A DNA stretch of 64,000 nt from an uncultured delta proteobacterium (GCA_963815115.1 CAWFFN010000008.1:32001-96000); one strand, 5' to 3'; shown: positions 14,143-36,287, numbered from the stretch's first letter. Program-made: numbers and translations. Notes: a model not told the origin generated them from the letters alone.

Positions 14143-14244
14143 GGGGTGATTTGACCCAGGTGGGTCGAATCACCCGGCGCACCTGGCGGGTGCGCGGGAG
14201 ATCGCGGGCGCCGGCGGGCCGCCGCTCTCGGCACGCGACGTGCA
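14143..14244 (+). promoter_or_regulatory. Paired upstream activator sites plus sigma54 promoter of Cys-repeat gene 1
   Basis: Inverted pair GGGGTGATTTGACCCA (14143-14158) / TGGGTCGAATCACCCG (14161-14176); CGGCACGCGACGTGCA (14229-14244, GG-N10-GC). Confidence 0.6.
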
Positions 14245-14271
14245 CAGTCCATTCGCGGAGGATCTGCACCA

Positions 14272-15333
14272 ATGCTTCGATGTACATGTTCCGCGCGCCG
14301 CGCGCGGCTCGCCATTGTCGGGCCTACGATCGCTCTCCTGCTGGTCGGAATGGCGGCCGGGGCAAGCGTGGCGGCACCGATCGTCGTCCGGCAGACGCTT
14401 CGTGCGACCGGCGACGATGCCGACGCACGCGGCAAGGCCATCTTCAAGGTCCGTGGCAAGGGAAGCCGCCGCAGCGGGACGCTCGTGGTGACCGCCGCGA
14501 AGCTCGAGCGCAGGTCGTCCCTCGAGGTCACGATCGACGGCGTGCGCATCGGCACCCTGCCGACGTCCGGGCGGGGCGCCGGTCGCGCTCGCTTCCGTAC
14601 CGTGCCCCGCGGCGATGACCAGCTGCTCGGCATCGATCCGCGCGGCCGCACGATTGCGCTGGTAGGGACGGGCGGTGCGGCGGTTCTCGCGGCCGGCCTG
14701 CCGTCGAAGGGGCTCGATCCGGGCGACGTGCGGTGCTGTGTGCCGGACGACTCGGGGCCCGAGTGCGAGGATCGCACCGTGGCGGAGTGCGCGGCCCAGG
14801 GCGGCGTCGACCTCGGCCCGGGTTCGTGTCTCCCCAATCCCTGCGGGAGCAGCCCGACCGATCCCGGCGGCGACATCCGCTGCTGCCTCCCAGACGACTC
14901 GGGGCCCGAATGCGAGGATCGCACCGTGGCGGAGTGCGCGGCCCAGGGCGGCGTCAACATCGGCGCGGGGTCGTGCGCGCCGAATCCGTGCGGAACGGCG
15001 ACGCCGCCGGTCGGTGGCACGGCGACCGTCGAGATCACGTGCGAGCGGCGCGCGGACCGTTCGAAGATCTCCGTGAACGGAAAGGGCCTCGCGAGCGGGA
15101 GCTATCGCGCGCGGGTGACGTCGGGCGCCAATACGGCCACTGCCGGCCCCAGGTCGACGGTCGGCGACGAGGTCGAGTTCGACTTCGATAGCGCGCCGGA
15201 CGACGTCGCCGCCGGAGCGACCGCCATCGCGGGTACGTTCGTGCAAGGGGTTCCCCCGCGGGTCGCGGGTACCATCGAAACCGCGGCGGGCGCCGTCGTC
15301 GCGGAAGCGATGGCAACCTGCGCAGAGCGCTAG
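14272..15333 (+). CDS. Secreted Cys-rich repeat protein, paralog 1 (2 repeats)
   Basis: RBS GGAGGA, signal peptide, basic N-domain (LLGIDPRGR), repeats at 14734-14844 and 14881-14991, C-domain CERRADRSKISV...GDEVEFDFDS. Confidence 0.85.
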   Translation: MLRCTCSARRARLAIVGPTIALLLVGMAAGASVAAPIVVRQTLRATGDDADARGKAIFKVRGKGSRRSGTLVVTAAKLERRSSLEVTIDGVRIGTLPTSGRGAGRARFRTVPRGDDQLLGIDPRGRTIALVGTGGAAVLAAGLPSKGLDPGDVRCCVPDDSGPECEDRTVAECAAQGGVDLGPGSCLPNPCGSSPTDPGGDIRCCLPDDSGPECEDRTVAECAAQGGVNIGAGSCAPNPCGTATPPVGGTATVEITCERRADRSKISVNGKGLASGSYRARVTSGANTATAGPRSTVGDEVEFDFDSAPDDVAAGATAIAGTFVQGVPPRVAGTIETAAGAVVAEAMATCAER

Positions 15334-15338
15334 AGACT

Positions 15339-15392
15339 CGCCGGGCAGAGGGCTGGTAGGGGTGAAGGGCAATTCGCCGTTTGAAGCTCCTT
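15339..15392 (+). repeat. Dispersed ~55-bp repeat copy B
   Basis: CGCCGGGCAGAGGGCTGGTAGGGGTGAAGGGCAATTCGCCGTTTGAAGCTCCT. Confidence 0.6.
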
Positions 15393-15398
15393 TGAAGC

Positions 15399-16851
15399 CA
15401 ATGCCGGTCACTTAACGCGGGATCCCAGCGGTGCGGGACGTTTCCGGAGATAGCGACTGATCTTGAGCTTGACGGCGCGCGGGTAGCGGCGGGCGCGGCG
15501 GTCGGGGAGCACGAAGAGCGCGAGGTCGTCGAGGAGCGCCTCGATGCGGCGGGGCAACACGCCGGGTGGCGTGAGCCACGCGGTGTGCCAGAAGGCGCGC
15601 AGCGCCAGGAGCGCGTGGCGATAGCTCAAGCGCACGGGTGGCACGCCGGCACGCGGGGCGGCGCGGCTCATGACGAGGCGAACGAGGTTGTAGGCGAGTA
15701 GCAGCCCCCACACTTCCTGCTCCACGCGGGCGGGCGCTTTGCTCCGCAACGCCTCGGCGCGCTCAAGCGTGTGGGTCTTGAGTTCGTCGAAGGCGAGTTC
15801 GAGTTCCCAGCGGTCGTGGTAGAGCGCGGCCAGCTCGGCGGCCGGCGCGGTGGCGGGGTTGAGTAGTGAGGTGAAGAGCCAATAGGGGCAAAAGCCGCGA
15901 CGCTGGACGCGCACGGCGCGCACCCGCAGCGTGGGGGGCAGGTCGGGATGTTTGGCGCAGGTGATGCTGGTCGGTTGCAGCTCCACCAGGGTATCGCCCG
16001 GCGCGAAGCGCTGGACGACCTGGCGCTGCAGCGCGGTGCGCCCGTCGCGGGCACGCACGAGCCAGTGGCGGTCGCGGGTCGGGTCGCTCAGGGCGTGGAA
16101 CAGGGCGTAGCTGCAGAAGCCGCGGTCCAGGATGACCACCGCGTGGTCGGGGAGCGCGTTCCACACCCCGTGCGCCAGCGCGAGTTCGCCGGTGCGAGAA
16201 GAGCCCACAGCTACGGCCGCCAGCAGATGATGGCGCAGGTTGAGGAGCGCGACCACGCGTACCTGCGGATAGCCCGCGCCCGCCCCGTCGGGGCTCGCCG
16301 GGCGGCCGAACGTCGTGACATTCTCGAGCGTATCGGGCACGCGCAGCGTAGTGCCGTCGAGGCCGTAGACGGCGAGCCCCCGCCAGCGCTCGATGGCCGC
16401 CGCCTCGGTGCTCCACACCGTCGCCGTGTGCGAAAACAGCGCGGCCAGCGGGGCGGCGCCGAGCTGATCGCGGGCCTGGACGATGGCCGCATTGCTGACG
16501 CGCCCGCGCTCGCCGCGCCGTGCCGGCACCAGCAGGTCGAGATGGTGCACGACCTCGGTGATGCTGCGATCGCGGAACAGGCCCATGCCGATGACGAGCC
16601 ACACCACATGCTCGGCCAGGAGCTTGCGACGCCGCACCGACGCGGTGCCGGTCGCCGCCAACACCTCGGCGATCCACTGCTTGTCGATCGCCGCGCTGAA
16701 CTGCGCGAAACTCGCCGGGCGCTCGCCCGCGCCCACCGCGAGGATGGCCTCCCCCACCTCCTCGCCCCACCTCCCGTGGGGGAGACCAGTTACTACCTTG
16801 TGGACAAAGGATCCAGAACCCGACCACTTGCGCGCTAACCGACCGGCATTG
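15399..16851 (-). mobile_element. Complete IS4-family insertion sequence (1453 bp)
   Basis: TIRs CAATGCCGGTCACTTA (15399-15414) and TAACCGACCGGCATTG (16836-16851), 14/16 match. 10-bp TSD CCTTTGAAGC at 15389-15398 and 16852-16861. Confidence 0.95.
15408..16757 (-). CDS. IS4-family DDE transposase
   Basis: GLDGTT, LDRGF, YHDRWELELAFDELK (Y-R-E-K motif). The start must lie inside the TIR; GTG 16757 chosen. Confidence 0.92.
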   Translation of the reverse strand: MGEAILAVGAGERPASFAQFSAAIDKQWIAEVLAATGTASVRRRKLLAEHVVWLVIGMGLFRDRSITEVVHHLDLLVPARRGERGRVSNAAIVQARDQLGAAPLAALFSHTATVWSTEAAAIERWRGLAVYGLDGTTLRVPDTLENVTTFGRPASPDGAGAGYPQVRVVALLNLRHHLLAAVAVGSSRTGELALAHGVWNALPDHAVVILDRGFCSYALFHALSDPTRDRHWLVRARDGRTALQRQVVQRFAPGDTLVELQPTSITCAKHPDLPPTLRVRAVRVQRRGFCPYWLFTSLLNPATAPAAELAALYHDRWELELAFDELKTHTLERAEALRSKAPARVEQEVWGLLLAYNLVRLVMSRAAPRAGVPPVRLSYRHALLALRAFWHTAWLTPPGVLPRRIEALLDDLALFVLPDRRARRYPRAVKLKISRYLRKRPAPLGSRVK

Positions 16852-16929
16852 CCTTTGAAGCCTCTATCCGTCAAACCGCTCTGGCACCGATTCCGCCGAA
16901 TCACGCTTTGTCAGCAACCTTGCTATGGT

Positions 16930-19113: not shown

Positions 19114-19116
19114 ACG

Positions 19117-19296: not shown

Positions 19297-22050
19297 TCAC
19301 CCGGCGAGGAGGGCCCGGCGCCGCTCGCGCCGGCGTACGACGAGCTTGCGAGCCTCCTCGACCCACAGGACCAGGCTTCCCACCAGCCCGAGCTGCACGA
19401 CCTCCGCGAGGCTGAACGGGACCGTGTGGAACACGCGCCCGAGCGGCGCCCAGAACACGACCGCCACCTGCAGGAGATTGCCGGCGACCAGCCCGCCGAG
19501 CAGCCACGGGTTCCTGAGGACGCTCAGGTTCAGGGCCGACTTCCATTCGGAGCGGCAGTTGAGCACGTTGAACCACTCGCAGATCGCGAGCAGCGTGAAC
19601 GTCTCCGTGCGCACCTGGGCCTCCGGCACGCCCGCCGCCAGCCGGCCGATGAACCACCCCAGGCTGGAGACGACGATCGCCGGCACCATGACCGCCATCC
19701 GCGTCAGCAGGATGCGGGTGAGGAGCGGCTCGTCCGGCGAGATGGGTGGCCGCCGCATCTCGTCGCCCTCCGCCGGCTCCATGATGAGGTTGACGGTGAT
19801 GAGTCCCTCGGTGACGAGGTTGTTCCAGAGGATCTGCACCGCGGCGAACGGCGGCGGATGGCCGAGCAGCATCGCCAGCAGGAGGACGAGAACCTCCGCG
19901 GCCGAGGTCGAGAACAGCAGCAGCACGGCCTTCTTGATGTTCCGGTAGACGAGACGCCCCTCCTCCACCGCCGCGACGATCGTGGCGAAGTTGTCGTCGC
20001 CGATGACGATCTTGGCGGAGTCTTTGGCAACCTCGGTGCCCGTGATGCCCATCGCGATGCCGACGTCGGCCTTGACGAGCGCGGGCGCGTCGTTCACCCC
20101 GTCGCCGGTCATCGCCACGACCTCGCGCCGGCGCTGGTAGGCATCGACGATGCGGAGCTTCTGCGCCGGGTGGACGCGCGCGAAGACGGAGATCCCGTCG
20201 ATGCGCTCCGTCAGCTCGGCGTCGGACATCTTCTCGAGCTCCTGGCCGTCGACGACGCCGTCTCCGTCGCGCGCGATGCCCAGCGCCCTGGCGATGGCGT
20301 GCCCCGTCGCCTTGTGGTCGCCGGTCACCATGACCGGCCGGATGCCGGCCGCGCGGCAGCGCTCGACCGCGTCCTTCACCTCCGGCCGGGGCGGGTCGAT
20401 CTGGCCGAGGAGTCCGAGCAGCGTCACCCGACCGGCGAAGGCGGCGAACCCGGCGCGACGGTCGATGTCGGCGTCGGCGACGACGCCGATCGCGAGCACG
20501 CGCAGCGCCCGCTCGGCCATGCGCTCCGCCGCGTCGTGCATCGCGCGCCGCGCCTCGTCGTCCAGCGCGACCTCGTCGCCGTTCCGTCGCGCCGCCCGGC
20601 ACAGCCCGAGCACGACCTCGGGAGCCCCCTTGACGACGACCAACGAAGCCGCGGGCGTCTCGTGCTGGGTCGCCATCATCTTCGCGGCCGGGTCGAAGGG
20701 GATCTCCGCGCGCCGCGGCCAGCGCTCCCGCAGCGCGGACGGCACGATGCCGCCCTTGATCCCGAGCGCGACGAGCGCGACCTCCGTCGGATCGCCGAGG
20801 GCCTTCCATCGCGGCTCCGACTCGCCCGGCCCCTGCAGCTGGGCGTCGTTGCACAGAACGCCCGCCTCGAGCAGCGCGCGGATCCCTTCCGTCGCCAGCG
20901 GATCGATCGCGCGTCCGTCCTGCAGGAACGCGCCTTCCGGCTCGTAGCCGGCTCCCGTGACCGTCACCTCTCGTCCGTCCGGTAGGCAGAGCGCGGTCAC
21001 GGTCATCTCGTTTTTCGTGAGCGTGCCCGTCTTGTCCGTACAGACGACGGTGGTCGAGCCCAGCGTCTCGACGGCGGCCAGCCGGCGGACGACGGCGTTC
21101 CGGCGCGCCATGCGCTGGACGCCGACCGCGAGCGCGATGGTCATCGCGACGGGGAGGCCCTCGGGAATCATCCCGACGACCTGACTGATGCCGACCATGA
21201 CGATCTGCCCGAACGGCATTCCGCGGAGCACGCCGATGAGGTTGATGGCGAAGAACATCGCGATCGCCCCGACGATGACGTAGCGTCCGAACTGGGCGAC
21301 CCGCCGTTCCAGCGGCGTCTGCGGCTGCTCGGCGGCCTCGGCGAGCGCGGCGATGTGACCGATCTCGGTGGCGAGTCCGGTCGCGACGACCACGGCCCGC
21401 GCGCGCCCGGCCGTCACGTGCGTGCCGGCGTAGACCATGTTGCGGCGATCGGCGAGCGGGGTGTCCGGCGCCACGGGACGCAGGTTCTTCGGCACCGGGA
21501 CCGACTCGCCCGTCAGCGCGGCCTCGGCGATCTGCAGGGCGGCGTGGTCGAGGAGCCGCGCGTCGGCGGCGATGGCGTCTCCCGCCTCGAGCACGAGGAG
21601 GTCTCCGGGGACGACTTCGCGCGCCTCGACGAGCGCTTCCCGTCCTCCCCGCACCACGCGCGCCGTATGGGTCGCGAGCTTGCGGAGCGCCCCGAGCGAT
21701 CGCTCCGCCCGCCCCTCCTGGAAGGCGCCGATGACGGCGTTCAGGAGGACGACGATGGAGATGACCACGGCATCGCTCGCGTGGCCGAGCGCCAGCGCAA
21801 TGCCGGCGGCGCCGAAGAGGAGGTAGATGAGCGGGCTCTTGAACTGGCCGAGGAAGACCGAGGCGAGGGAGCGGCGGCTGGGCTCCGGCAGCGCGTTCGG
21901 CCCGAAGCGGTCGAGCCTGCGGGCGGCCTCCTCGGCCGAGACGCCGGCGTGGCCGTCCGACTCGACGGCCGCCACGGCCTCTTCCGCGTGCAGCGCGTGC
22001 CAGCGACGGTGTCGATCGTCGCGCGCCCGGTCGGGGGACCCTCCGTGCAC
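19297..22050 (-). CDS. Cation-transporting P-type ATPase (type IIA-like)
   Basis: TGES, IPEGLP, DKTGTLT, KGAPE, TGD, TGDGVNDAPAL. Start approximate. Confidence 0.93.
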   Translation of the reverse strand: MHGGSPDRARDDRHRRWHALHAEEAVAAVESDGHAGVSAEEAARRLDRFGPNALPEPSRRSLASVFLGQFKSPLIYLLFGAAGIALALGHASDAVVISIVVLLNAVIGAFQEGRAERSLGALRKLATHTARVVRGGREALVEAREVVPGDLLVLEAGDAIAADARLLDHAALQIAEAALTGESVPVPKNLRPVAPDTPLADRRNMVYAGTHVTAGRARAVVVATGLATEIGHIAALAEAAEQPQTPLERRVAQFGRYVIVGAIAMFFAINLIGVLRGMPFGQIVMVGISQVVGMIPEGLPVAMTIALAVGVQRMARRNAVVRRLAAVETLGSTTVVCTDKTGTLTKNEMTVTALCLPDGREVTVTGAGYEPEGAFLQDGRAIDPLATEGIRALLEAGVLCNDAQLQGPGESEPRWKALGDPTEVALVALGIKGGIVPSALRERWPRRAEIPFDPAAKMMATQHETPAASLVVVKGAPEVVLGLCRAARRNGDEVALDDEARRAMHDAAERMAERALRVLAIGVVADADIDRRAGFAAFAGRVTLLGLLGQIDPPRPEVKDAVERCRAAGIRPVMVTGDHKATGHAIARALGIARDGDGVVDGQELEKMSDAELTERIDGISVFARVHPAQKLRIVDAYQRRREVVAMTGDGVNDAPALVKADVGIAMGITGTEVAKDSAKIVIGDDNFATIVAAVEEGRLVYRNIKKAVLLLFSTSAAEVLVLLLAMLLGHPPPFAAVQILWNNLVTEGLITVNLIMEPAEGDEMRRPPISPDEPLLTRILLTRMAVMVPAIVVSSLGWFIGRLAAGVPEAQVRTETFTLLAICEWFNVLNCRSEWKSALNLSVLRNPWLLGGLVAGNLLQVAVVFWAPLGRVFHTVPFSLAEVVQLGLVGSLVLWVEEARKLVVRRRERRRALLAG

Positions 22051-22355
22051 TCGACAGTCTCGTAGTCGACGGCGACGCGGGAGTCGAGCGCGGGGCGTAC
22101 GTCGCGTCCCCCGGTTCTGCCAGCGTGACGTCCCTGGGGGTGTCAGTCTACCAAGCGTGCTCGCGGACCGCAGGGTCCGCGGCGACAATCACGGGTGCGC
22201 ACGGGACGTCGGGTCCAACTTGTTAGCGGGCTTCGCGCACCATGCAATGCTCGACCTCGGTGCCGGCAGCGGCGCCGTACCAGTTTCCTCCCTCGCGGGT
22301 CGACCCCACGGGTCGGTGGGAACTTGTTACGGAAGGGTGGCTGGCCTCGTAGACG

Positions 22356-24301: not shown

Positions 24302-24409
24302 AGCAGGCCGCGTGCCAGCGAAATGCTCGTCGATTCGCGGTGTCGTCGGCCCGTACCGGGGGCAATTCCCCCACGCGGTGCGTGCCCACCCCCAGGGCGG
24401 CTGACCCCA
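24302..24409 (-). promoter_or_regulatory. sigma54 promoter and upstream activator sites of Cys-repeat gene 2
   Basis: Minus-strand TGGCACGCGGCCTGCT (24317-24302); 16-bp sites at 24358-24373, 24379-24394 and 24394-24409. Confidence 0.7.
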
Positions 24410-25965: not shown

Positions 25966-25983
25966 ACGTGATGGCCACGTTCA

Positions 25984-26468
25984 TGCGTCCCCGTGCAGCC
26001 GCCGCAATCCTGGCGGCGCTGGTCGTGCTCGCCACCACCACCGCCCGCCCGAGCGCCACGAGCCCGACGCTCGTCGTGTCGGCCGCGAGCGGCATGCGTG
26101 CCGACGGACGGGTCGCGGTGACCGTGGAGGGGGCCTTCGACTTCCCGAACGCCATCCAGGTCGGCTACCCGCTCCAGCTCGTCGTCTTCCAGGACACCAC
26201 CTTCGTCCGCTTCCCGATCGCGGGAGCACCCCAGGTGGGCCAGTCGAGCCTGCTCGCTGACGGCCGGCTCGATTCCGACGACGTCCCCGGACTGCTCGCC
26301 GCCGGCAGCCCGGCGCCGGCCGACGTGCGCATCGTGTCGCTGTCCTCCACGCACGCGGTCCTCGCGCTTCCCGCCGGTTTCCACGCCGGCGCCGCCACGG
26401 TCCAGGCGTTCGCCGTGCTGTCCGACGGGCGCGTGCTGTCGAATCCCCTCGTGCTGGTGCTGCCGTGA
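25984..26468 (+). CDS. Secreted hypothetical protein
   Basis: Signal peptide MRPRAAAAILAALVVLA, beta-rich; GTGA overlap with the next gene. Confidence 0.75.
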
Positions 26469-28516
26469 GGACGGTGCCCGCGATCGCACTGGTGGCGCTC
26501 GCGCTCACGAGCGCGCGCGCGGCGACCATCTTCGACGGCGATCCGGTCGATCCCGGCACTCAGCGCGCGTACGCGATCCTGCCGGGCGTTCCCCTGATCC
26601 TCCCGCAGCCGGACGGGAAGTTCGACCCGCCGATCGTCGACCCGAGCATCGTCGGCGACGTCGACCTAGTCGTGCGTGCCGCCAGCCTCGGGATCGGTCC
26701 GGCGATGCCGCCGCCGGTGGCGAGCCCGCCGGTCGTCACCGCGGGCGGCCTGCACGTCGCGGCGGGCAGCGAGATCCCCTTCACCGTGATCGCCTCAACG
26801 GGAGGTCCGGGCGCAGGCGCGCCGCTCGGCGGCTCGAGCCTCGACGGCATCCCGGTGGTGGTCGCCGCGTTCGCCGATCTCGACGGCGACGGCGTCATCG
26901 GCCCGACGCGTGCCGACGGCGCGGCCGACGATGCGCGTGAGGCCCAGGAAGCGGCGTTCGTCGTCGGCCGACAGGTCGCACTCTTCAGCGGCGGCGTCGC
27001 CGAAGGCACGCTCGCGGTCTGGAAGGGTGCGCCCGCTTCGGCCGGCGGTCTCACGGTCATCCTCACCGCGATGGCCTACGTCGGCCCGTTCAGCCCGGGC
27101 TTCTTCGCCGGCAACGTGCCGGACGGCCCGGGCGTCGCAACGTCCCTGCCGCTCTTCCCGCGCCTCGATCCCGACCGGGTGATCGAGGGAAACGGACGCG
27201 GCGGACCGGCCGATCCCGACGAGCGCCTGGGCTTCGAGTGGGAGGCCGCCTTCGACGCCCCGGCAGACGACCCGGTGCTCGGCCCGCTGTTCGCGCTGCC
27301 CACCAACGGGAGCAATGTCACCATCGACCGCGCCGTCGTGGTCGGCGGCGCCGTGTCGCGCGCGCGCTTTCTCGACCCGGCAGGCCTCACGGGCTTCTCG
27401 AACGAGAGCGAGGCGTCGCTCTACCCAGGCGCCGGCGGGACGCTCCTCGAGCCGCGCTCCGCCATCGCGCTCGCCGACGACGGGCCGGGAGGTGGCGTGC
27501 CGGTCCAGCTGGTCCCGGTCGACGGCCTCGACAACGTCACCGACCCGACGCCCGGGACGGCGGCGACGCTGGTAGCTGGTCCGGGACTCGTCATCGCCGC
27601 GCCCGACACGGACGGCGATCCGGGCCGGGAGACGGTGGTACTTGGCTCGGCCGCGGGCGTCTCCGTCACCGTCGACGACGACGGCGGGACGAACGACTCG
27701 GGCACGTCCTCGTCGGTCGTCGTCGTCATGGGCGGCGCGCCGGTCGAGTCGCTCGCCGTCCAGCTCACGCCCGGAAGCGGCGGCTCGACGACCACCACCG
27801 TGCTGCCGACGACCACCACCGTGTTGCCGACGACGACCACGACGGTGCCTGCCATCCCCACCGTCCGCGGCGCGGCCATCGTCGGGGAGCCGGCGGCCCT
27901 GTCACGTGCCTGTCCCGCGCAGAAGACGATCGCCGCCGTCGTGGACGCCGGCACCGGCGGCGCCTCCGAGGTGTCGGTGACGCTCTCGGTGAACGGCACG
28001 ATCGCGCGCACGCTGTCGCTCTCCCCCGCGACGCTTCCCCCAGACCTCACCGTGCCGCCGGGCCCCGGCTATGCCGGCGACTTCTCGCTCGACAGCCCCG
28101 ACCTGGGGACGCTCCAGATCACCATCGAGGCGCGGAACGCGGCGGGAAGCGCACCGCCGCTGTCCTTCTCGTTGCCCATCGTCCGCGCGCTGCCGCCCAC
28201 GGTGCTCGCGCCCGTGCTGACGCCCTCGTCGCTGCCGGCCGGGGTGCGCTCGGTCGTCACCGTCACGGCCCGGGTCGGCAGCGACTGTCGCGTTCGCAAG
28301 GTGCGCGCCGCGGCCGACCTCGGGCGAGGCTTCCGCGGCATCGGCGCCTTGCGAGACGGGGGCAAGAAGGGCGATGCGATCGCCGGTGACGGGCTCTTCA
28401 CGGGCAAGCTCAAGCTGAGGCCCAGGCGCACCGGCACCTTCCCCGTGCGTGTCACCGCGCGCAATCGACAGAAGCTCACGGGCACGAGCCCCTCGACGCC
28501 CCTGGTCGTGCAGTAG
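26465..28516 (+). CDS. Secreted/surface protein with Thr-rich linker and C-terminal choice-of-anchor-X-like domain
   Basis: Signal peptide, DLDGDG and DTDGD Ca-binding-like loops, (TTTTVLP)n linker, LRDGGKKGDAIAGDGLFTG. Confidence 0.8.
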   Translation: MRTVPAIALVALALTSARAATIFDGDPVDPGTQRAYAILPGVPLILPQPDGKFDPPIVDPSIVGDVDLVVRAASLGIGPAMPPPVASPPVVTAGGLHVAAGSEIPFTVIASTGGPGAGAPLGGSSLDGIPVVVAAFADLDGDGVIGPTRADGAADDAREAQEAAFVVGRQVALFSGGVAEGTLAVWKGAPASAGGLTVILTAMAYVGPFSPGFFAGNVPDGPGVATSLPLFPRLDPDRVIEGNGRGGPADPDERLGFEWEAAFDAPADDPVLGPLFALPTNGSNVTIDRAVVVGGAVSRARFLDPAGLTGFSNESEASLYPGAGGTLLEPRSAIALADDGPGGGVPVQLVPVDGLDNVTDPTPGTAATLVAGPGLVIAAPDTDGDPGRETVVLGSAAGVSVTVDDDGGTNDSGTSSSVVVVMGGAPVESLAVQLTPGSGGSTTTTVLPTTTTVLPTTTTTVPAIPTVRGAAIVGEPAALSRACPAQKTIAAVVDAGTGGASEVSVTLSVNGTIARTLSLSPATLPPDLTVPPGPGYAGDFSLDSPDLGTLQITIEARNAAGSAPPLSFSLPIVRALPPTVLAPVLTPSSLPAGVRSVVTVTARVGSDCRVRKVRAAADLGRGFRGIGALRDGGKKGDAIAGDGLFTGKLKLRPRRTGTFPVRVTARNRQKLTGTSPSTPLVVQ

Positions 28517-28599: not shown

Positions 28600-29085
28600 C
28601 TACTGCGCGACCAGCGCGACTGTCGGGCTCGTCCCCGAGAGCCATGCGCGGTTACGTACCGTGGCGCGCACCGGGAAAGCGCCCGGCTGCGCGGGCCTCA
28701 CGCGGAGGGTGCCGGTGAAGAGACCGTCGCCCGCCGCGGGGTCGCCCTTCCTGCCGTCGTCGCGCAGCGAGCCGGCGCGGCGGAAGCCGCGGCCGAGGTC
28801 TGCCTCGAGCTTCACCTTGCGGGCGCCGCAGGCGTCGAACACGCGGACGGTGGCGGCCACGGTCGAGCGGACGCCGGCGGGCACCACAGCCGGGCTCAGG
28901 CTCGGCGCCAGCAGCGTTGGCGGCATCGCGGTCACGATCGGTAGCGAGAACGAGAATGGCGCGGCGGCGCCGGCGGCGTTGCGCGCGTCGACGGTGACCT
29001 GCAGGACGCCCGCGTCGGGATTTTGGAGCGAGAAGCGCTCGTCCCAACCGGGGCCCGCGGGCAGCGGCAGAACCGGCGGCGAGCG
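28600..29085 (-). pseudogene. 5'-truncated inverted paralog of the choice-of-anchor-X-like gene
   Basis: PAGPGWDERFSLQNPDAGVLQVTVDARNAAG...LRDDGRKGDPAAGDGLFTG aligns to the last ~155 aa of 26465-28516. Confidence 0.8.
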
Positions 29086-29111
29086 TGGTGGGCCTCAGCG
29101 CGAGGGCCGGG

Positions 29112-29204
29112 TGGGGCTTCTCACGCTGGTCGCGTCATGTCCCCCAGCCCGAGTGGCGAAGGCATGCCGTTTTCCGGGGCCGAGCGGGTGGCATGCGCGG
29201 TGCT
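29112..29204 (+). promoter_or_regulatory. Activator sites and sigma54 promoter of Cys-repeat gene 3
   Basis: TGGGGCTTCTCACGCT (29112-29127), CGCGTCATGTCCCCCA (29131-29146); TGGCATGCGCGGTGCT (29189-29204). Confidence 0.62.
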
Positions 29205-29255: not shown

Positions 29256-30452
29256 ATGCAAACGATCACGAGATGGAGCATCGCGCTGAGCATGCTCGCG
29301 CTCGGTGGACTCGCCGTCCTGGTCCCGGCCGCGGAGGCCAAGGGAGTCAAGGTCCGCCAGAGTCTGGGCGTCACCGGAGCCGACCCCGACGGAACCGGGG
29401 AGCTGAAGGCCGACATCCGCGCCTCTGCCGCCGGGTTGCGCGGCAAGCTCGAGGTGAAGGTGCACGGGCTCGCCCCCGAGTCCACCTTCGACATCACCCT
29501 CGACGGGGTGCGGATCGGCTCCTTCACCACGCGGCGGAACGGCTCGGGCAAGGCGAAGTTCGACACCCGACCCAGCCGATCCAAGCAGCTCCTCGGCGTC
29601 GACCCGCGCGGAAGGCTGGCGGCGGTGGTGGCCGGCGATGGCTCCGTGGTACTCCAGACCGCGGTGTCCGCCAGCACGCTCGACCCCAACGACGTGCGCT
29701 GCTGCCTGCCCGACGATTCCGGTCCCGAGTGCGAGGACCGCACCGCCGCCGAGTGCGCCGCCGCCGGCGGGGTCGACCTGGGGCCGGGCTCCTGCCTGCC
29801 GAACCCATGCAGTGGCGGGACGCCAATCGGTGGCGACGTTCTCTGCTGTCTGCCCGACGATTCCGGTCCCGAGTGCGAGGACCGCACCGCCGCCGAGTGC
29901 AGCGCCCAGGGCGGCATCAACATCGGCGTGGGCACCTGCCTGCCGAACCCGTGCAGCGGTCCGACACCGCCGCCGGACGACGACATCCGCTGCTGCCTGC
30001 CCGATGACTCGGGTCCCCAGTGCGAGGACCGCACGGTGGCCGAGTGCGACGCGGCGGGTGGTATCAACATCGGGGCCGGCGCCTGCACGGCGGACGCTTG
30101 TCACGCAGGGGCGACCACCACCACCACGCTGCCGCCGAACGCGGCCGTGCTGGTGACCTGTGAGCGGCGCTCGGACCGCTCGAAGGTGTCTGTGAACGGC
30201 AACAATCTCGCCTCCGGCACCTACAGCGCACGCATCACGTCGGGCGCGAACGCGGCCGCGAGCGGCGCGCAGCCCACGGTGGGCGACGAGGCGGAGTTCG
30301 ACTTCGCCAGCGAGCCCGACGACATCGCGGCCGGCGCGACGCCGATCGCAGCGGGCTTCATCCAGGGTACGCCGCCGCTGGTGACGGGCGAGATCCTGAA
30401 CGCCGGCGGCGTGGTGGTGGTGTCGGCAACGGCGACCTGTCTCGACCGGTAG
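29256..30452 (+). CDS. Secreted Cys-rich repeat protein, paralog 3 (3 repeats)
   Basis: RBS AGGAGGAGG, signal peptide (AAEA|K), repeats at 29700-29810, 29844-29954 and 29991-30101. Confidence 0.88.
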   Translation: MQTITRWSIALSMLALGGLAVLVPAAEAKGVKVRQSLGVTGADPDGTGELKADIRASAAGLRGKLEVKVHGLAPESTFDITLDGVRIGSFTTRRNGSGKAKFDTRPSRSKQLLGVDPRGRLAAVVAGDGSVVLQTAVSASTLDPNDVRCCLPDDSGPECEDRTAAECAAAGGVDLGPGSCLPNPCSGGTPIGGDVLCCLPDDSGPECEDRTAAECSAQGGINIGVGTCLPNPCSGPTPPPDDDIRCCLPDDSGPQCEDRTVAECDAAGGINIGAGACTADACHAGATTTTTLPPNAAVLVTCERRSDRSKVSVNGNNLASGTYSARITSGANAAASGAQPTVGDEAEFDFASEPDDIAAGATPIAAGFIQGTPPLVTGEILNAGGVVVVSATATCLDR

Positions 30453-30557: not shown

Positions 30558-32960
30558 TCAGTAGCCCGCGGCGGGCAGCTCCAACACGAAGCGCGCACCG
30601 CGGGCGACGCTCGGGTCCAGCGTCACCCGACCGCCGTGACGCTCCATGATCTTCCGGACGACCGCCAGCCCCACGCCCGTGCCGCGCGATTTCGTGGTCA
30701 TGAAGAGCTGGAAGATGCGGTCTCGGACCTCGGGTGGAACGCCGGGGCCCTCGTCCTGCACGCCGATGCGGACCACGCCCGGGTTGCCGCCGCCGACGCG
30801 AGCATCGATGGTCACCCGGCCGCCCTGCGGCATCGCGTCGATTGCGTTGCCGAGCAACTCCTGCATCGCCTGGGTCAGGTGCGCGGGGTCGGCGAGGACA
30901 CGCGGGAGCGAGGGTGGCAGGTCGAGCGCCACGGTGACGCCCGAGGCCTCGAGCCGCGCCGCGACAGCGTCGAGGACCGAGCGCGCCAGCGCCGGCAGCT
31001 CCAGCGGCTCGAGGTGCGGCTCGAACGGCCGCGCGAAGTCGAGGATGCCCCGCACCTGCGCTTCGAGTTTGTCCACCGCGCCGAGGACGTCCTCGAAGCT
31101 CTCGCGCACCGGGTCGGTGCCGGTCGTGGCCTCCAGGCCGAGCTGCGCGGCCAGGCGAATGCCGGCCAGTGGGTTGCGGATGCCGTGCGCCACCGCCGCC
31201 GACAGCTCGCCGATCTCGGCCAGTCGCTCGCTCCGCGCGAGCTGGACGCGCGCCTCCGCGAGCTGCTCGATGGCGGTCGCATTGGCGAGCGCGGCGGCCG
31301 TCTCGTTGGCCAGCGTGCGCAGCACATCGAGGTCGTCCGACGACAGCGTCGCCCCCGTGGCCTTGCCACGCACGGCGAGGCACCCGGTCACGCGGCCCTC
31401 GCGCAGCATCGGCACGACGAGCACCGCCTCGAGCGCACGGAACAGACGCCGCAGCACGTCGCGCCGGTCCGCCAGGACGCGCGACTGCTCGACCTCATCG
31501 AGCGACAGCGGGCGGCCGATGGCGACCAGTTCCGCGAGCTCCGGGGCCTCCGGCGGGATGCGGCCCGGGTCGCCGCCTCGCCGCACCAGGCCCGCGGCCT
31601 CGCATTCCCACACCGACGGCGCGTCCAGGTGGAGCGAGTCGCGCATCGTCGCCAGGACGTACCGCACGACGGCGGTCCGATCGAGCAGCGTGGTCATGTG
31701 CTCGCTGGCCCGCGCGATGGTGCCCTTGTAGTCGATGCGCCCGCGATGGAAGAGATCGTCGACCGCACGCTGCACGCGGTCGCGCAGCGGCACGATCGTC
31801 GCCAGGACGACGAGCACGAAGGCGATCGGGAAGAGCGCCGACTGGCGCAGGTCGAGCCCCGCCGCCACCCGGTCCGCGACGACCACGCTCGCCGCGTAGG
31901 CGAACGCGACCAGCGCCGTCAGCGCCGCGTAGACCAGCGACTGGCGCACCAGGCGATCGGCCTCGAACAGGTCGTGGCGGATCACCGCGTAGCCGATCGC
32001 GAGCGGGAAGATGAATCCGGTGAGCGTGAGCAGGCTGAACGACACCGGCAGGCCGGCGAGGAAGAAGGCGAGGAGCGCGAGCATCGGCAGGCCGAACGCG
32101 ACGATGGCACCCGCCAGCACGACGCGCGCACGGCGCCGGCCGAGCGGCGTGGTGCGCGCCCCGAAGGCGGCCGCCGCGATCGATGCCATGGCCACCAGCC
32201 CCGCCGCCGCGAGGGCGAGATAGACGGCGTCGTTGACGGCGAGCAGGATCGGGTACGAGCGCCAGAACGCCCACACCTGGATGAGCCCGACGGCCAGGCC
32301 GGCGAGGTACAGCAGCACGAGCGGCCGGGTCGAGCGGATCCTGGGCTCGGGGAAGGTGCACGCGAGGTGCAGGACCGCCGCCGGTGTGAGCGACTCCAGC
32401 ACGAGTCCGAGCGGCTCGAGCCACCCCGCCGTGAAGGCGTCCACCGCAAGCAGGAGCGCCAGCCCCCAGATGGCGCCGAACGCGAGCAGGGCGCGGCTCT
32501 GGATCGACTCCGGCTTGAGATAGAACGCCGCGAGCGCGGCGACCAGGAACGCCATGCCGTTGAGCACGTAGACGCCCATCGTCGCCGCCCAGTCGTGAAA
32601 TTTGAGCCGCATGGCGGTCACGGTGCGCGTCGTCGGCTCGGCTCGGCCCTGGAAATCATAGCGATGTGGCGTTCCCGGGGGCTCCGCAGCGACCATCCGG
32701 TCGACGTCCGCACGCGTGTGCACCGGGACCCCGTCCACGGCGGCGACGCGATCGCGGTAGGGGACTTCCGCCGCCACGCCGCTCCAGCCCGCGCGCCCGA
32801 GCGCCACCACGACGAGATTCTTCCACACCACGAATCCCGGAAAGGTCCGACCGACGTGCGACAACGAACCGAGCGTCGCCGCGCCGCCGAGCAGCGTGGT
32901 GACCAGCCCGACGGCCAGGAACAGCCGGGCGTCAGCGGGACGCCGGAAGCGGGCGAGCAT
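30558..32960 (-). CDS. Sensor histidine kinase (extracytoplasmic PDZ-like + multi-TM + GAF + HisKA/HATPase)
   Basis: DRVAAVDGVPV (PDZ-like), about 8-9 TMs, GAF (LVVPM...DDLDVLRTLA), H-box AHGIRNPL, NAIDA, DEGPG, GTGVGL. Confidence 0.9.
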   Translation of the reverse strand: MLARFRRPADARLFLAVGLVTTLLGGAATLGSLSHVGRTFPGFVVWKNLVVVALGRAGWSGVAAEVPYRDRVAAVDGVPVHTRADVDRMVAAEPPGTPHRYDFQGRAEPTTRTVTAMRLKFHDWAATMGVYVLNGMAFLVAALAAFYLKPESIQSRALLAFGAIWGLALLLAVDAFTAGWLEPLGLVLESLTPAAVLHLACTFPEPRIRSTRPLVLLYLAGLAVGLIQVWAFWRSYPILLAVNDAVYLALAAAGLVAMASIAAAAFGARTTPLGRRRARVVLAGAIVAFGLPMLALLAFFLAGLPVSFSLLTLTGFIFPLAIGYAVIRHDLFEADRLVRQSLVYAALTALVAFAYAASVVVADRVAAGLDLRQSALFPIAFVLVVLATIVPLRDRVQRAVDDLFHRGRIDYKGTIARASEHMTTLLDRTAVVRYVLATMRDSLHLDAPSVWECEAAGLVRRGGDPGRIPPEAPELAELVAIGRPLSLDEVEQSRVLADRRDVLRRLFRALEAVLVVPMLREGRVTGCLAVRGKATGATLSSDDLDVLRTLANETAAALANATAIEQLAEARVQLARSERLAEIGELSAAVAHGIRNPLAGIRLAAQLGLEATTGTDPVRESFEDVLGAVDKLEAQVRGILDFARPFEPHLEPLELPALARSVLDAVAARLEASGVTVALDLPPSLPRVLADPAHLTQAMQELLGNAIDAMPQGGRVTIDARVGGGNPGVVRIGVQDEGPGVPPEVRDRIFQLFMTTKSRGTGVGLAVVRKIMERHGGRVTLDPSVARGARFVLELPAAGY

Positions 32961-34281
32961 GCGGCAGCGTGCCGGTGTTGATCGCGAGCCCGCGGCGGCG
33001 CCGGCGCAGGCTCGAGAAGTATTGCAGGTTCACCGTCGCGTAGAGGACCAGGTTCGCGGGCCGGAGCAGCCGCGGGTAGTGCCGCAGCCGCGCCGTGCGG
33101 CGCGCGAACGCCGGCCAGCTGTAGTAACGCTCCTCGAGGTCTCGCACCCCCGCCTCGAGGGCGTCGGGCGCCCATCCGGGCAGATCGAACACCTGGTGCT
33201 GGAGATCGTACAGGCGCCAGTCGCGCGTCCGGATGCGTCCGGCGGCCGCGAGCTTCTCGAACGTCGGCGTGCCCGGGAACGGCGTCAGGATCCCGAACGA
33301 GGCGCCAAACACGTCGGCCTCCTCGCAAAACGCCAGGGTGCGGTCGAACACGTCCGGCCCGTCCTCGTCGAAGCCGAACGTGAACATCGCGAGCACGCCG
33401 ACGCCGTGCGACTGGAGCGCGTCGATCTGCTGGCGGTAGCGCTCGGCGCGGTTCGTACGGTGCTTGTTCATCTCGCGGAGGGATCCCGGGACGACCGACT
33501 CGAAGCCGACCAGCAGCCCCGTCATGCCGCTCGCCACGGCCAGCTCCAGCAGCTCGGGGTCGTCTGCGAGATCGATGGACGCCTCCCCGACCCAGCGCCG
33601 GCCGAGCGGCGCGAGCGCGCGGAACAGGTCGCGGGTGTACCCGCGGTGGATGAAGAGGTTGTCGTCGATGAAGAAGAGCGTCCGACCGTCGAGCTTGGCG
33701 ATCTCCGCCGCGACGTCCGCGACCGGCCGCCGGCGATACTTGGGGTTGATGGTGGACACGGAGCAGAAGCTGCACCGGTACGGACAGCCACGCGTCGCCT
33801 GCACCAGGTTGCGCGTGAAGTAGCGCCGGCCGTCGAGCAGGTCGCGGCGCACGCGGGGATAGCGCGCGAGGTCGGTGTCGTTCCGGCTCACGTAGCGCGC
33901 CCGCAGGGTGCCGCGCTCGACATCGGCCAGCACATCGGCCCACACGTCGTCCGCCTCGCCCACCACGACCGCGTCCGCGTGCGCGGCCGCCTCGTCCGGG
34001 CAGAAGGTCACGTGCCAGCCGCCGAGTACGACCGGGACACCGCGGCTGCGGAAGCGATCCGCCAGCAGGTACGCGCGGTGCGCCGACATCGTGTTCACGC
34101 TGATCGCCACCAGGTCGGGGGTGGCGCTTTCGTCGACCTCGCCGTAGTTGTCGTCCGCGAAGCGCACCGTCCAGTGCGCCGGTGTCAGCCCCGCGATGTA
34201 GGGCATGGTGAGCGTCGGGATCAGGCGCTCGTAGATCGGCGCGTCACGCGTACGCGGCCAGATGAGGAGGAGGTTGGGCAT
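32932..34281 (-). CDS. B12-binding-domain radical SAM enzyme
   Basis: VVLGGWHVT..P.E, VVVGEA, TRGCPYRCSFC, FIDDN, GFES, TPFPGT. Overlaps the kinase start by 29 bp. Confidence 0.92.
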   Translation of the reverse strand: MPNLLLIWPRTRDAPIYERLIPTLTMPYIAGLTPAHWTVRFADDNYGEVDESATPDLVAISVNTMSAHRAYLLADRFRSRGVPVVLGGWHVTFCPDEAAAHADAVVVGEADDVWADVLADVERGTLRARYVSRNDTDLARYPRVRRDLLDGRRYFTRNLVQATRGCPYRCSFCSVSTINPKYRRRPVADVAAEIAKLDGRTLFFIDDNLFIHRGYTRDLFRALAPLGRRWVGEASIDLADDPELLELAVASGMTGLLVGFESVVPGSLREMNKHRTNRAERYRQQIDALQSHGVGVLAMFTFGFDEDGPDVFDRTLAFCEEADVFGASFGILTPFPGTPTFEKLAAAGRIRTRDWRLYDLQHQVFDLPGWAPDALEAGVRDLEERYYSWPAFARRTARLRHYPRLLRPANLVLYATVNLQYFSSLRRRRRGLAINTGTLPHARPLPASR

Positions 34282-34297
34282 CCGCTGGCACCGAGGT

Positions 34298-34313
34298 AAC
34301 AAGAGCCGTGCCA
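34298..34313 (-). promoter_or_regulatory. Possible sigma54 promoter for the radical SAM-kinase operon
   Basis: TGGCACGGCTCTTGTT: perfect -24 element, -12 reads TTGT instead of TTGC. Confidence 0.5.
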
Positions 34314-35828
34314 GGGAGACAAGGGACCACGCGCGGCGTCCTGCTCGCTATCCTGGCCGGCGTCCTCCACGGGCTGTGCTTCGCCCCCGCCGGGCTGTGG
34401 CTCCTGGCCCTGGTCGCGCCGGCGCCGCTCCTGGTGGCAGTGCGCGGAGCGACGGCCGGTCGGGCCGCGCTCCTCGGCTGGATCGCGGGCACGGTCGCGT
34501 CGGGGATCGCCGTCACGCCGTGGATGACGACGGCCCTGCTCGACTACTTCCGCCAGGGACCGGCGATCGCGATCGCCTTCGCCACCCTGGTGGGCCAGGT
34601 TTTCCACGCCTTCCCGACGGCGCTGTTCGCGATCGGGGCGAGCCGCCTCGACCGGCTGCCGAGCGCGGTTGCCCGCATCGTCTGCGTCGCGAGCCTGTGG
34701 ACCGCGCTCGAGCTGCTGCGCTCGAAGCTGCTCGTCGGCGCGCCGTGGGACCTCCTCGGCCACGCCCTGTACGCACACCCGCTGTGGCTACAGATCGCCG
34801 ACCTCGCCGGTGTCTACGGCGTGTCGTTCGCGTGCGTCGCGATCGCTGCCGCGCTCGCCGAGCTGCCGCGCGCGCCCCGCCCAGCGCTCGCCACGACTCT
34901 CGTCGTCGCCGGACTCTGGGCGGGCTACGGCGCGGCGCGGCTCGCGCGGGAGCGCGACGACGGTGAGACGGTACGCATCGCGCTGGTGCAGGGGAACGTG
35001 CCGAACGCATGGCGTGCGGACCCGCGTGGCGCCGACGAGGCGTTCCGTGCCTTCGCCGACGCGACCGCCGGCGTCCTGCCCGACCGGCCAGCACTGGTCG
35101 TGTGGTCCGAGAACGCGATCAGCTTCCTGCTCGAGCCGAACGCGCGCTTCGGCGGCGCGATCGCCAGCCTGCTCGGACCCGCCGGCCCCTTGCTGCTCGT
35201 CGGCGGACCGCGCTTCGCGCAGCGCCAGCCTGGCCGTGCCGACTTCTTCAACTCGGCGTACCTGCTCGGCTCGGACGGCGCCGCGCTCGGCACGTACGAC
35301 AAGCGGCGCCTGGTGCCATTCAGCGAGTATGCGCCCTTCCCGAACGTCCCGGTCCTCGGCTGGCGGTTCGATGCTCCGGGCGATTACACGCCGGGACGCG
35401 AGCCGACGGTCTTCCAGGAGCCGGTGCCCTTCGGCGTCCTCATCTGCTTCGAGGCGATCTATCCCGACCTCGCGCGCGATCTCGCCGCGAACGGCGCGGA
35501 GGTCCTGCTCAACCTCTCGAACGACGCCTGGTTCGGCACCAGCGCCGGCCTCGAGCAGCACTTCGCGATCGCTGTCTTCCGTGCGGTCGAGCAGCGCCGC
35601 GCACTGGGCCGGGCGACCAACACCGGCGTGACGGCGCTGGTGGGACCGTCCGGGCGCGTCCTGGCGCGCTTTCCGGCCCGGGAGCGTGGCGCGTGGACGG
35701 TCGAGGCGCCGCGCCGCCATGGGCTCACGGCGTACGCCCGTATCGGCGACGTCTTTGCATGGCTGACGGCGCTCGTAGCCATGGCTGGCGTCGCGGCCAG
35801 TGCCCGCCTCCGGCGAGGTGCGCGATGA
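34308..35828 (+). CDS. lnt: Apolipoprotein N-acyltransferase (Lnt) family protein
   Basis: N-terminal TMs, LVQGN, catalytic triad VVWSE / YDKRRLVPFSEY / LICFE, NLSNDAWF, RATNTG. Start uncertain. Confidence 0.88.
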   Translation: MPGRQGTTRGVLLAILAGVLHGLCFAPAGLWLLALVAPAPLLVAVRGATAGRAALLGWIAGTVASGIAVTPWMTTALLDYFRQGPAIAIAFATLVGQVFHAFPTALFAIGASRLDRLPSAVARIVCVASLWTALELLRSKLLVGAPWDLLGHALYAHPLWLQIADLAGVYGVSFACVAIAAALAELPRAPRPALATTLVVAGLWAGYGAARLARERDDGETVRIALVQGNVPNAWRADPRGADEAFRAFADATAGVLPDRPALVVWSENAISFLLEPNARFGGAIASLLGPAGPLLLVGGPRFAQRQPGRADFFNSAYLLGSDGAALGTYDKRRLVPFSEYAPFPNVPVLGWRFDAPGDYTPGREPTVFQEPVPFGVLICFEAIYPDLARDLAANGAEVLLNLSNDAWFGTSAGLEQHFAIAVFRAVEQRRALGRATNTGVTALVGPSGRVLARFPARERGAWTVEAPRRHGLTAYARIGDVFAWLTALVAMAGVAASARLRRGAR

Positions 35829-35911
35829 GCCGCAGCGCCTGCGCCAAAGCACCCAAGTCGCGGGCGCGGCGCGCGCGGAAGCACCGGCGCCGGGCTGGCA
35901 CCGTGATTGCT
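35819..35911 (+). promoter_or_regulatory. Paired activator sites plus consensus sigma54 promoter
   Basis: TGCGCGATGAGCCGCA (35819-35834), TGCGCCAAAGCACCCA (35840-35855); TGGCACCGTGATTGCT (35896-35911). Confidence 0.78.
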
Positions 35912-35921
35912 GATCGAGGGC

Positions 35922-36287
35922 ATGGGTCGCAGGATCCTCATCGTCGAGGACGACGACCTGCTGCGCGTGCAGCTGTCCCGTCTCTTCACCGGCCGCGGCT
36001 ACGAGGTCGAGACGGCCGCGTCGATCTCCGCGTTCGTCACCGCGGTGACCGGCAGCCGCTTCGACGCCTGCCTGTTCGACCTCTCGCTGCCGGACGGTGA
36101 CGGCCTCGAGGCCTGGGCAGCCGCCAGCGAGCACCAGCGCGAGGCGACCGCGGTGCTGATGACCGCGTACGGCACCGACCAGGTCGTCCGGCGCGCGGCG
36201 CGACTCGGCGTGCGCACGATCCTCGGCAAGCCGCTCGACCTGCCGACCCTGCTGGCGGCGGTCGGCGGCGTGGGTGTAGCGGGCTAG
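35922..36287 (+). CDS. Single-domain response regulator
   Basis: ILIVEDD, LFDLSLPDGDG, LMTAY, GKP. Confidence 0.9.
   Translation: MGRRILIVEDDDLLRVQLSRLFTGRGYEVETAASISAFVTAVTGSRFDACLFDLSLPDGDGLEAWAAASEHQREATAVLMTAYGTDQVVRRAARLGVRTILGKPLDLPTLLAAVGGVGVAG

Follow-up and report, generated by a model that had tools for sequence, protein, structure and literature searches.

A candidate two-component sigma-54 regulon of secreted six-Cys-repeat proteins in Candidatus Binatia

INTRODUCTION

What connects a family of secreted, cysteine-rich proteins of no described function to the regulatory genes among which they are encoded? The question is raised by a 64,000-nucleotide stretch of DNA from an uncultured delta proteobacterium (GCA_963815115.1, CAWFFN010000008.1:32001-96000; here referred to as the window, with positions counted from its first letter). 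An original prediction, made by reading this sequence, proposed that positions 14143 to 36287 hold an undescribed sigma-54 regulon built around three paralogous secreted proteins with six-Cys repeats. We followed up this proposal computationally and find good support for a regulon that appears real, conserved and undescribed; each of the sequence-level checks put forward with the proposal came out on its side. It is probably a self-contained two-component sigma-54 regulon, limited, as far as we searched, to the class labelled Candidatus Binatia.

In the mechanism that we propose, a membrane kinase that senses through a periplasmic PDZ domain of HtrA type would phosphorylate the adjacent NtrC-type activator. 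Activator dimers would bind palindromes of the form cTGsGkGAnnTCmCsCAg, which are tandem at most promoters, and would drive sigma-54 RNA polymerase at five promoters serving the three paralogues, an operon for secreted proteins of 164 and 683 amino acids (aa) and a lone receiver; the receiver would probably feed back on phosphotransfer. A dedicated paralogue of apolipoprotein N-acyltransferase (Lnt), conserved beside the kinase, would not itself be a target. Binatia are common in soils and sediments but have not been cultured, and next to nothing is recorded of how they regulate their genes; the proposal amounts to a complete and testable cis-regulatory model (sensor, activator, binding site, promoters and targets) obtained from sequence alone.

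RESULTS

Five promoters combine a sigma-54 box with a palindromic upstream site

The window is ~70% G+C, and genes were therefore called from third-position G+C and then assigned by Pfam and NCBIfam family searches. The three predicted paralogues were all found, with signal-peptide-like N termini: paralogue 1 (positions 14272 to 15333, plus strand, 353 aa), paralogue 2 (23184 to 24251, minus strand, 355 aa), and paralogue 3 (29256 to 30452, plus strand, 398 aa). Between paralogues 2 and 3 lie the gene for an NtrC-type enhancer-binding protein (24476 to 25864, plus strand), here referred to as the activator, and an operon led by a small secreted protein of 164 aa (25974 to 26468, plus strand), the stop of which overlaps the start of the gene for a 683-aa secreted protein (26465 to 28516, plus strand). 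Beyond paralogue 3 are a sensor histidine kinase (30558 to 32960, minus strand), a B12-binding radical SAM enzyme whose gene overlaps the kinase start and is in an operon with it (32932 to 34281, minus strand), the Lnt paralogue, divergent from the kinase operon (34308 to 35828, plus strand), and a lone single-domain response-regulator receiver of 121 aa (35922 to 36287, plus strand; Pfam Response_reg, 73.9 bits). Pfam confirmed both the activator and the multi-transmembrane/GAF kinase that had been noted in this block, and it also identified the radical SAM enzyme. All five predicted target promoters fall between 14.1 and 36.3 kb, a span of ~22 kb.

For sigma-54 boxes of the -24/-12 type, we used the consensus TGGCAC-N5-TTGCW with its GG-N10-GC core and required a match at 9 or more of the 11 consensus positions. 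The box of paralogue 1 lies at 14229 to 14244 (plus strand, CGGCACGCGACGTGCA, 9/11, 43 nucleotides [nt] before the ATG), that of paralogue 2 at 24302 to 24317 (minus strand, TGGCACGCGGCCTGCT, 10/11, 66 nt before the ATG at 24251), and that of paralogue 3 at 29189 to 29204 (plus strand, TGGCATGCGCGGTGCT, 9/11, 67 nt before the ATG). The operon is preceded by two overlapping candidates between 25933 and 25965 (plus strand, TGGAACGAGCCGTGCA and CGGCACGCGGCTTGCG, each 9/11) and the receiver gene by a box with 0 mismatches at 35896 to 35911 (plus strand, TGGCACCGTGATTGCT), one of 12 perfect boxes genome-wide. Across the five targets, boxes are found 24 to 67 nt before start codons.

The original prediction had listed six such boxes, and the sixth, assigned to the radical SAM-kinase operon (34313 to 34298, TGGCACGGCTCTTGTT), was rejected: it has GT for GC at the -12 element (TTGT), it has no upstream site, and it is not conserved, having lost the GG in related locus L046 and being absent in L079. 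Its end lies 17 nt upstream of the conserved ATG at 34281, and it overlaps the Lnt start. An imperfect inverted repeat, TGGCAC-N16-GTGCCA, at 34286 to 34313, runs across the 26 nt that separate the divergent Lnt and radical SAM starts and is the origin of this apparent box. No upstream site of the kind described below was found for the Lnt gene or the radical SAM operon, and neither is retained as a regulon target.

A palindrome, cTGsGkGAnnTCmCsCAg, recurs upstream of the boxes and was first seen in aligned promoters. We modeled this upstream activator site (UAS) as a symmetric 18-nt motif refined on promoters and searched for it freely over 250 nt, with position and spacing unconstrained. In most promoters, the two best sites stand in tandem, 18 to 21 nt apart, with their centers ~80 and ~60 nt before the box start. 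In pairs of at least 20 bits, the two sites are 17 to 24 nt apart, most often 19, and the median distance from the downstream one to the box is 60 nt. In this genome, four promoters have a tandem UAS and the operon has a single one. The pairs are located at 14142 to 14159 and 14160 to 14177 for paralogue 1 (15.8 and 13.5 bits), within 24357 to 24395 for paralogue 2, between the divergent starts of that gene and the activator gene (13.9 and 11.6 bits), within 29111 to 29147 for paralogue 3 (10.6 and 14.2 bits), and at 35818 to 35835 and 35839 to 35856 for the receiver, overlapping the Lnt stop (13.3 and 13.3 bits). The single operon site, at 25871 to 25888, is strong (15.9 bits).

We then searched the 6.9-Mb genome with a UAS model whose training set was 41 promoters, none of them from this genome. 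It returned 9 tandem pairs, compared with 0, 0, and 2 in three second-order Markov simulations. The pair of paralogue 1 was the genome's top-scoring one, the sites of paralogues 2 and 3 were also recovered, and the operon site scored 16.1 bits; the receiver pair, which was in no training set, is an independent match. Four of the nine pairs have a box of at least 9/11 at the right distance, and these belong to paralogues 1, 2, and 3 and the receiver, all in the block. When one site of at least 12 bits and a box of at least 9/11 were required, 8 promoters remained of 1,228 boxes, with ~2 expected by chance; 5 of the 8, including the operon, are in the block. The tandem pair at G000:C9:814426 was treated as chance, as it lies inside an open reading frame (ORF) and has no good box.

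The same searches bear on a reading without any regulatory role, in which a 70% G+C genome would yield such boxes and palindromes by chance or as generic repeats. Boxes with 2 or fewer mismatches are not enriched across the window (22 found versus 17.2 expected), and the genome holds those 1,228 boxes at 9/11 or better, as this reading would have it. Because the window is not enriched, support for the promoters rests on position, conservation, and the linked upstream site. On each of these counts chance fares badly: position, orientation, and distance are kept across genera, the tandem pairs exceed those in simulated sequence, and the composite of UAS and box is confined to the block. We regard a chance origin as extremely improbable. 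The genes, the cis-elements, their conservation, and their specificity within the genome are established by the sequence together with comparison between genomes.

In the receiver promoter, the C of the -12 GC falls at 35910. Sigma-54 transcription is expected to start ~12 nt after the GC, here at ~35922; since this coincides with the A of the ATG, the receiver mRNA is predicted to be leaderless. Spacing is similarly tight in L060, where a box lies 13 nt before the receiver match.

The promoters and gene set recur in related genomes

The family of secreted proteins is present in 23 of 41 related genomes. In a species-level genome collection, 58 loci encode a relative, mostly from genomes labelled Candidatus Binatia or with the older label "Deltaproteobacteria," whereas a phylum sample of 201 genomes (window genome included, at most 10 candidates per genome scored) yielded the family in one other genome only, of the same class. 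Metagenomes contributed at least 474 relatives and 1,411 clusters at 50% identity. By tblastn with proteins of the window as queries, the activator, 164-aa, 683-aa, kinase, and Lnt genes were linked with a family gene in 6 of 20 loci around family genes and in ~20 of the 58 loci of the species-level collection, so that the proposed synteny holds beyond the window. Lnt adjoins the kinase start in 13 of the 14 loci with enough flank, and in the fourteenth the two are 9 kb apart. The 683-aa protein occurs in 16 of the 41 relatives, all of which also have the family.

Family genes elsewhere share the promoter arrangement. A box of at least 9/11 lies within 200 nt upstream in 37 of 61 rows, with ~1.3 expected from a background of 1.08e-4 per position (36 of 60 if the L098 promoter, counted twice, is counted once). 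Nearly all of these boxes are 42 to 117 nt before the start, and the median distance from box start to gene start is 69.5 nt. Positions that were not scored also fit the sigma-54 consensus: all 44 promoters have T at -14, and in 39 of the 44 a G follows GGCAC. A tandem UAS pair of at least 20 bits accompanies 28 of 44 distinct family promoters, compared with 15 of 1,083 other boxes in the same loci, and those 15 include operon, receiver, and activator promoters.

Across ~1.03 Mb of related loci, 51 rows combine UAS and box. Thirty-five precede family genes; nine precede the 164-aa gene (L047 and L087), the lone receiver (L060), or the activator gene (L056, L061, L064, and L066); and seven precede other or unassigned ORFs. 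The last include proteins with only tandem superoxide dismutase (SOD)-like domains (L045:9452 and L064:299), a beta-helix protein (L066:8916), and a 1,104-aa beta-propeller protein (L093 and L097). UAS and box precede the orthologous operon in L047 and L046; the operon -12 element is TTGA in L063, L090, and, more weakly, L079, and in L055 and L058 the operon directly follows a family gene. The Lnt-receiver arrangement with UAS and box is also found in L060. Four genomes that are 92 to 99% complete (G009, G012, G014, and G017) have no 683-aa protein; their best activator matches are 43 to 49% identical (70% in control G005), and the best boxes of their family genes reach only 5 to 7 of 11.

The adjacent activator probably acts at these promoters

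The gene for sigma-54, rpoN, is present in a single copy in the genome (448.6 bits; cut-off, 277.35). The activator combines REC, Sigma54_activat, and HTH_8 domains (PF00072, PF00158, and PF02954), all above their Pfam cut-offs, with Sigma54_activat at 198.9 bits, and its Walker A motif reads GETGTGK. Since the genome holds ~38 sigma-54 activator genes, control of the regulon by the activator at 24476 is something that we infer, and the assignment rests on linkage, on co-occurrence, and on the UAS and box that the activator gene itself has in four loci. Expression of the family is predicted to be all-or-none and signal dependent.

The promoters could instead be sigma-54 dependent but run by another of the ~38 activators, with the adjacent kinase and activator serving, for example, Lnt or the radical SAM enzyme. 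The abundance of activator paralogues would allow this, as would the three further copies of this kinase type, each beside an activator, and binding by the 24476 activator is itself a prediction from sequence. Set against it, UAS lie within the divergent region shared with the activator gene, and the activator gene is preceded by the composite element in other loci. Where the activator ortholog is missing, family genes are box-less; the composite is confined to the block; and the Lnt gene and radical SAM operon, the suggested alternative clients, are without a UAS. We consider control by a different activator very unlikely and continue with the adjacent activator as the predicted regulator.

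A kinase with a predicted PDZ sensor is linked to an Lnt paralogue

The hydropathy profile of the kinase indicates one transmembrane segment, a periplasmic domain, and then ~8 to 10 transmembrane segments, followed by GAF, HisKA, and HATPase domains. A profile of the periplasmic domain, built from 15 kinase N termini, matches the PDZ domains of DegQ, DegP, DegS, and RseP (E value of 1.6e-7; 8KIC and 4A8A), and every one of the best 33 listed chains carries a PDZ domain and is an HtrA-family protease, an RseP-type metalloprotease, or YlbL. Pfam PDZ_6 and PDZ_2 match 5 and 4 of the 15 N termini, all below the gathering score. The periplasmic sensor is therefore predicted to be an HtrA-type PDZ domain. 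A complex prediction for the kinase PDZ domain with mature paralogue 3 scored 0.00; it gives no verdict and is evidence neither way.

Three more kinases in this genome (G000:C12:253738, C5:1053710, and C9:448176) share the sensor and membrane region at 29 to 35% identity. Each lies within a few kilobases of a sigma-54 activator gene, and none is near an Lnt copy.

The Lnt paralogue scores 290.2 bits against TIGR00546 (cut-off of 132.9) and is one of five copies above that cut-off in the genome. Its alignment to 5N6M covers the full length and keeps the Glu, Lys, and Cys that we take to be the catalytic triad of Lnt. It thus resembles known Lnt (5N6M and 5N6H) in score, alignment, and aligned residues and differs in being one of five copies and in its conserved place beside a kinase. 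No lipobox is evident in the regulon proteins. The radical SAM enzyme has no NCBIfam equivalog and a conserved start (MPNLLLIWPR), and its gene is present only in the closest genera.

A PDZ-sensor kinase and a kinase-linked Lnt are unusual pairings that may reveal how Binatia monitor or build their envelope. One speculative extension, which we think improbable, is that PDZ-sensor kinase, dedicated Lnt paralogue, and sigma-54 activator form a new envelope protein-handling pathway, in which Lnt would acylate a substrate with no lipobox and the PDZ domain would read unprocessed or unassembled products and so tune their synthesis. One candidate substrate for surface anchoring would be the invariant mature N terminus (xVFxGDP) of the 683-aa protein or of the family proteins. 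If true, this would be a lipidation-based counterpart of exosortase/PEP-CTERM sorting. Literature searches on combinations of Lnt, sigma-54, kinase, and paralog and of PDZ, sensor kinase, periplasmic, and sigma-54 returned nothing.

In the two closest genomes, a second, paralogous set of Lnt, kinase, and activator (30 to 38% identical) lies just past the Lnt of the cluster (L105, G003:C22:198000-206600; L106, G002:C6:251000-258000). In G003, a ketoacyl synthase is beside this second set; the window has MerR and DUF3800 genes there. An apparent 1,340-aa Lnt-kinase fusion in L105 was rejected as an artifact, with Lnt and kinase matches in different frames and no Pfam Lnt domain.

The products have folds suggestive of envelope or matrix proteins

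The paralogues consist of a signal-peptide-like N terminus, a domain of ~110 residues, six-Cys repeats, and a C-terminal domain. The repeat spans 37 residues (CC-x8-C-x7-C-x12-C-x4-C) and is present in 2, 2, and 3 copies in paralogues 1, 2, and 3 (at 14734 to 14844 and 14881 to 14991 in paralogue 1). Asp, Glu, and Cys are abundant in the repeats, and the proteins end in C-x-x-R/K with no hydrophobic tail. Paralogue 3 was modeled with AlphaFold2 on a 51-sequence alignment (predicted local distance difference test [pLDDT] score of 83.7). In this model, residues 30 to 141 superpose on Cu,Zn-SOD (Z score of 12.6, root mean square deviation of 2.0 Å over 96 residues), best on loop-deleted monomeric SOD1 such as 4BD4 (Foldseek probability of 1.00); the six-Cys repeats form a hairpin plus helix, and the C terminus forms a second sandwich, a layout that paralogues 1 and 2, with two repeats each, are predicted to share. 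Family-wide, an N-terminal Cu,Zn-SOD-like barrel is followed by 2 to 7 repeats.

The likeness to Cu,Zn-SOD is one of Greek-key beta-barrel fold. Identity is 14 to 18%, the metal-binding loops are missing, and there is no Pfam Sod_Cu match. No invariant His, Asp, or Cys metal ligand is conserved in the domain, and paralogues 1 and 2 have 0 His; because no His is conserved, we read the SOD-like domain as a predicted scaffold and not an enzyme. The original prediction left room for a family of described function, and we found none: the paralogues match no Pfam or NCBIfam model, a family profile found no match below an E value of 0.5 in the PDB, members are named in databases at most "hypothetical protein," and literature searches found nothing on the six-Cys-repeat family. 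The analysis also defines a large protein superfamily that has no family model.

A second architecture of the superfamily has 4 to 6 tandem SOD-like barrels and no six-Cys repeats (L064:299-1747 and L045:9452-11272; P0193, P0222, and others). It is likewise preceded by UAS and box and adjoins the cluster in two genomes.

Both operon products appear to be secreted. The 164-aa protein has no family match in Pfam, in NCBIfam, or in a further search. The 683-aa protein was modeled by AlphaFold2 as a string of tandem beta-sandwiches (pLDDT of 76.8); it has an invariant DxDxDG motif (D138/D140/D142/G143) and, at its C terminus, a weak choice-of-anchor X motif (NF041940, 23.2 bits against a cut-off of 25). 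An ESM Atlas search with it gave no usable match. An inverted partial duplicate of the 3' end of its gene, likely a remnant, lies at 28603 to 29106 (minus strand) and corresponds to the last 168 codons, with 59% identity to residues 516 to 683 and one in-frame TGA; an ORF within it (28600 to 28935) matches choice_anch_X at 32.7 bits. The remnant sits between the 683-aa gene and paralogue 3. Because the kinase directly follows the 683-aa gene in G002 and G003 and the remnant is present here, the insertion of paralogue 3 seems to have come with a local duplication.

From their folds and signal peptides, the products are predicted to be components of the envelope or of an extracellular matrix. 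The proposed program stands as a distinct regulon; its envelope or matrix function is more conjectural. A possible though less probable reading is a response to envelope or metal stress, in which the PDZ domain would detect the exposed C termini of misfolded periplasmic or outer membrane proteins and the Cys-rich acidic proteins would be periplasmic chaperones or metal buffers and not matrix. The model for it is ZraS/ZraR/ZraP, an enterobacterial envelope stress system that is also a two-component system with a sigma-54 activator inducing a periplasmic protein and with feedback; we regard ZraSR as a second functional analogue. DegQ, DegP, DegS, and RseP, which the sensor profile matches with E values of 1.6e-7 to 1e-2, have stress-sensing PDZ domains. 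The best named models of the kinase core are AtoS and ZraS, and those of the activator include ZraR. The Asp-, Glu-, and Cys-rich repeats and a P-type cation ATPase in the block would also suit a stress response. The scores, however, are far below the ZraS and ZraR cut-offs (NF007688, 155.8 against 479; NF007689, 324.7 against 760), and sensor domain, targets, and accessory genes are all unlike those of ZraS/ZraR/ZraP. The SOD-like domain is without conserved His or Cys, the ATPase is not conserved with the system, and elsewhere the regulon includes large beta-helix, beta-propeller, and multi-sandwich proteins, a better fit to surface structures. We continue to favor a putative envelope or matrix role.

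The system resembles PrsK/PrsR but is not a member of it

The control of PEP-CTERM proteins by PrsK/PrsR had been proposed as an analogous but distinct case. In the original description (Haft et al. 2006, PMC1569441), regulation by a transmembrane kinase and an NtrC-type activator was found by phylogenetic profile. The targets are many mostly single-gene operons for secreted proteins, with motif 1, a spacer, and a sigma-54 motif upstream; 99 of 167 genes have motif and box, at a mean of 71 nt from box end to gene start (PMC1569441). The two systems share several features: activator motif, spacer, and -24/-12 box precede 99 of 167 genes there and 37 of 61 rows here, the distance to the start is a mean of 71 nt (from box end) there and a median of 69.5 nt (from box start) here, and a phylogenetic profile underlies the kinase/activator assignment in both.

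There are also differences. The activator scores 354.3 bits against the PrsR model TIGR02915 (cut-off of 502.6), and the kinase scores 118.7 bits against the PrsK model TIGR02916 (cut-off of 300), aligning only over model positions 264 to 679, the cytoplasmic half. The targets have no PEP-CTERM tail, the paralogues have no NCBIfam match, and the locus contains no exosortase, TPR lipoprotein, or exopolysaccharide genes; the sole exosortase-family match (PF09721) in the genome is on another contig, at G000:C9:1114930, in keeping with the initial observation. The PDZ sensor, the conserved accessory Lnt, and a UAS that is a different tandem palindrome further set the system apart. Because the UAS motif differs, the promoter likeness supports a similar way of working only. 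Scores below the cut-offs and the lack of a PEP-CTERM tail and of a local exosortase place the system outside PrsK/PrsR; as first suggested, it would work in a similar way. In titles and abstract openings, literature on sigma-54 or two-component regulation in Binatia or Binatota contained nothing on this locus.

Several observations weigh against a conserved regulon of this design

Several findings count against the regulon as we describe it. The UAS model was seeded and refined on the promoters that it describes; the receiver, operon, and activator promoters, together with the search whose model excluded this genome, give independent support. Twenty-four of the 61 family-gene rows have no good box. 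The related genomes are kin, so counts overstate independence. The sigma-54-contacting loop of the activator reads GAFTDA and not the canonical GAFTGA; of 24 related activators examined, 22 gave the motif, and 18 of these 22 keep GAFTDA, whereas this genome has 4 GAFTDA versus 19 GAFTGA. The large number of activators, with the basis of the assignment set out above, belongs here as well. Signal peptides were called by a simple rule of our own and not by a trained predictor, and Foldseek matches of the 683-aa model were generic multi-immunoglobulin or MG-domain sandwiches with TM-scores of 0.1 to 0.2. Among sequencing runs containing the stretch, 12 DNA runs (soil and bog metagenomes) and no RNA run were listed.

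A fourth paralogue in this genome (G000:C9:415507-416670, minus strand) also fits poorly: it has 3 six-Cys repeats and no signal-peptide-like start, box, or UAS. The frame of a membrane protein upstream seems to continue into this gene, which may be a decaying or differently controlled copy.

Neighboring genes

The proposed span does not hold as one system throughout: the genes described above belong together, whereas four others within it do not recur in related loci and were dropped as members for that reason. These are an IS4 transposase (15408 to 16904, minus strand), a DUF2231 protein between it and paralogue 2, the P-type cation ATPase (19297 to 22188, minus strand), and an ORF of 302 aa to which no function was assigned.

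Farther along the window, a gene at 59596 to 61158 (plus strand) encodes a STAS domain fused to sigma-70 regions 2 and 4. The next gene (61234 to 63933, plus strand) is that of a second sigma-54 activator, which has three PAS domains. No UAS of the cTGsGkGAnnTCmCsCAg kind lies near either gene. At the other end, the surroundings of paralogue 1 hold a phage-type integrase (6077 to 7072, minus strand) and the IS4 transposase, and an ORF there (9091 to 10113, plus strand) joins an integrase SAM-like N terminus to a C-terminal fragment of a P-type ATPase; the region looks rearranged by mobile elements.

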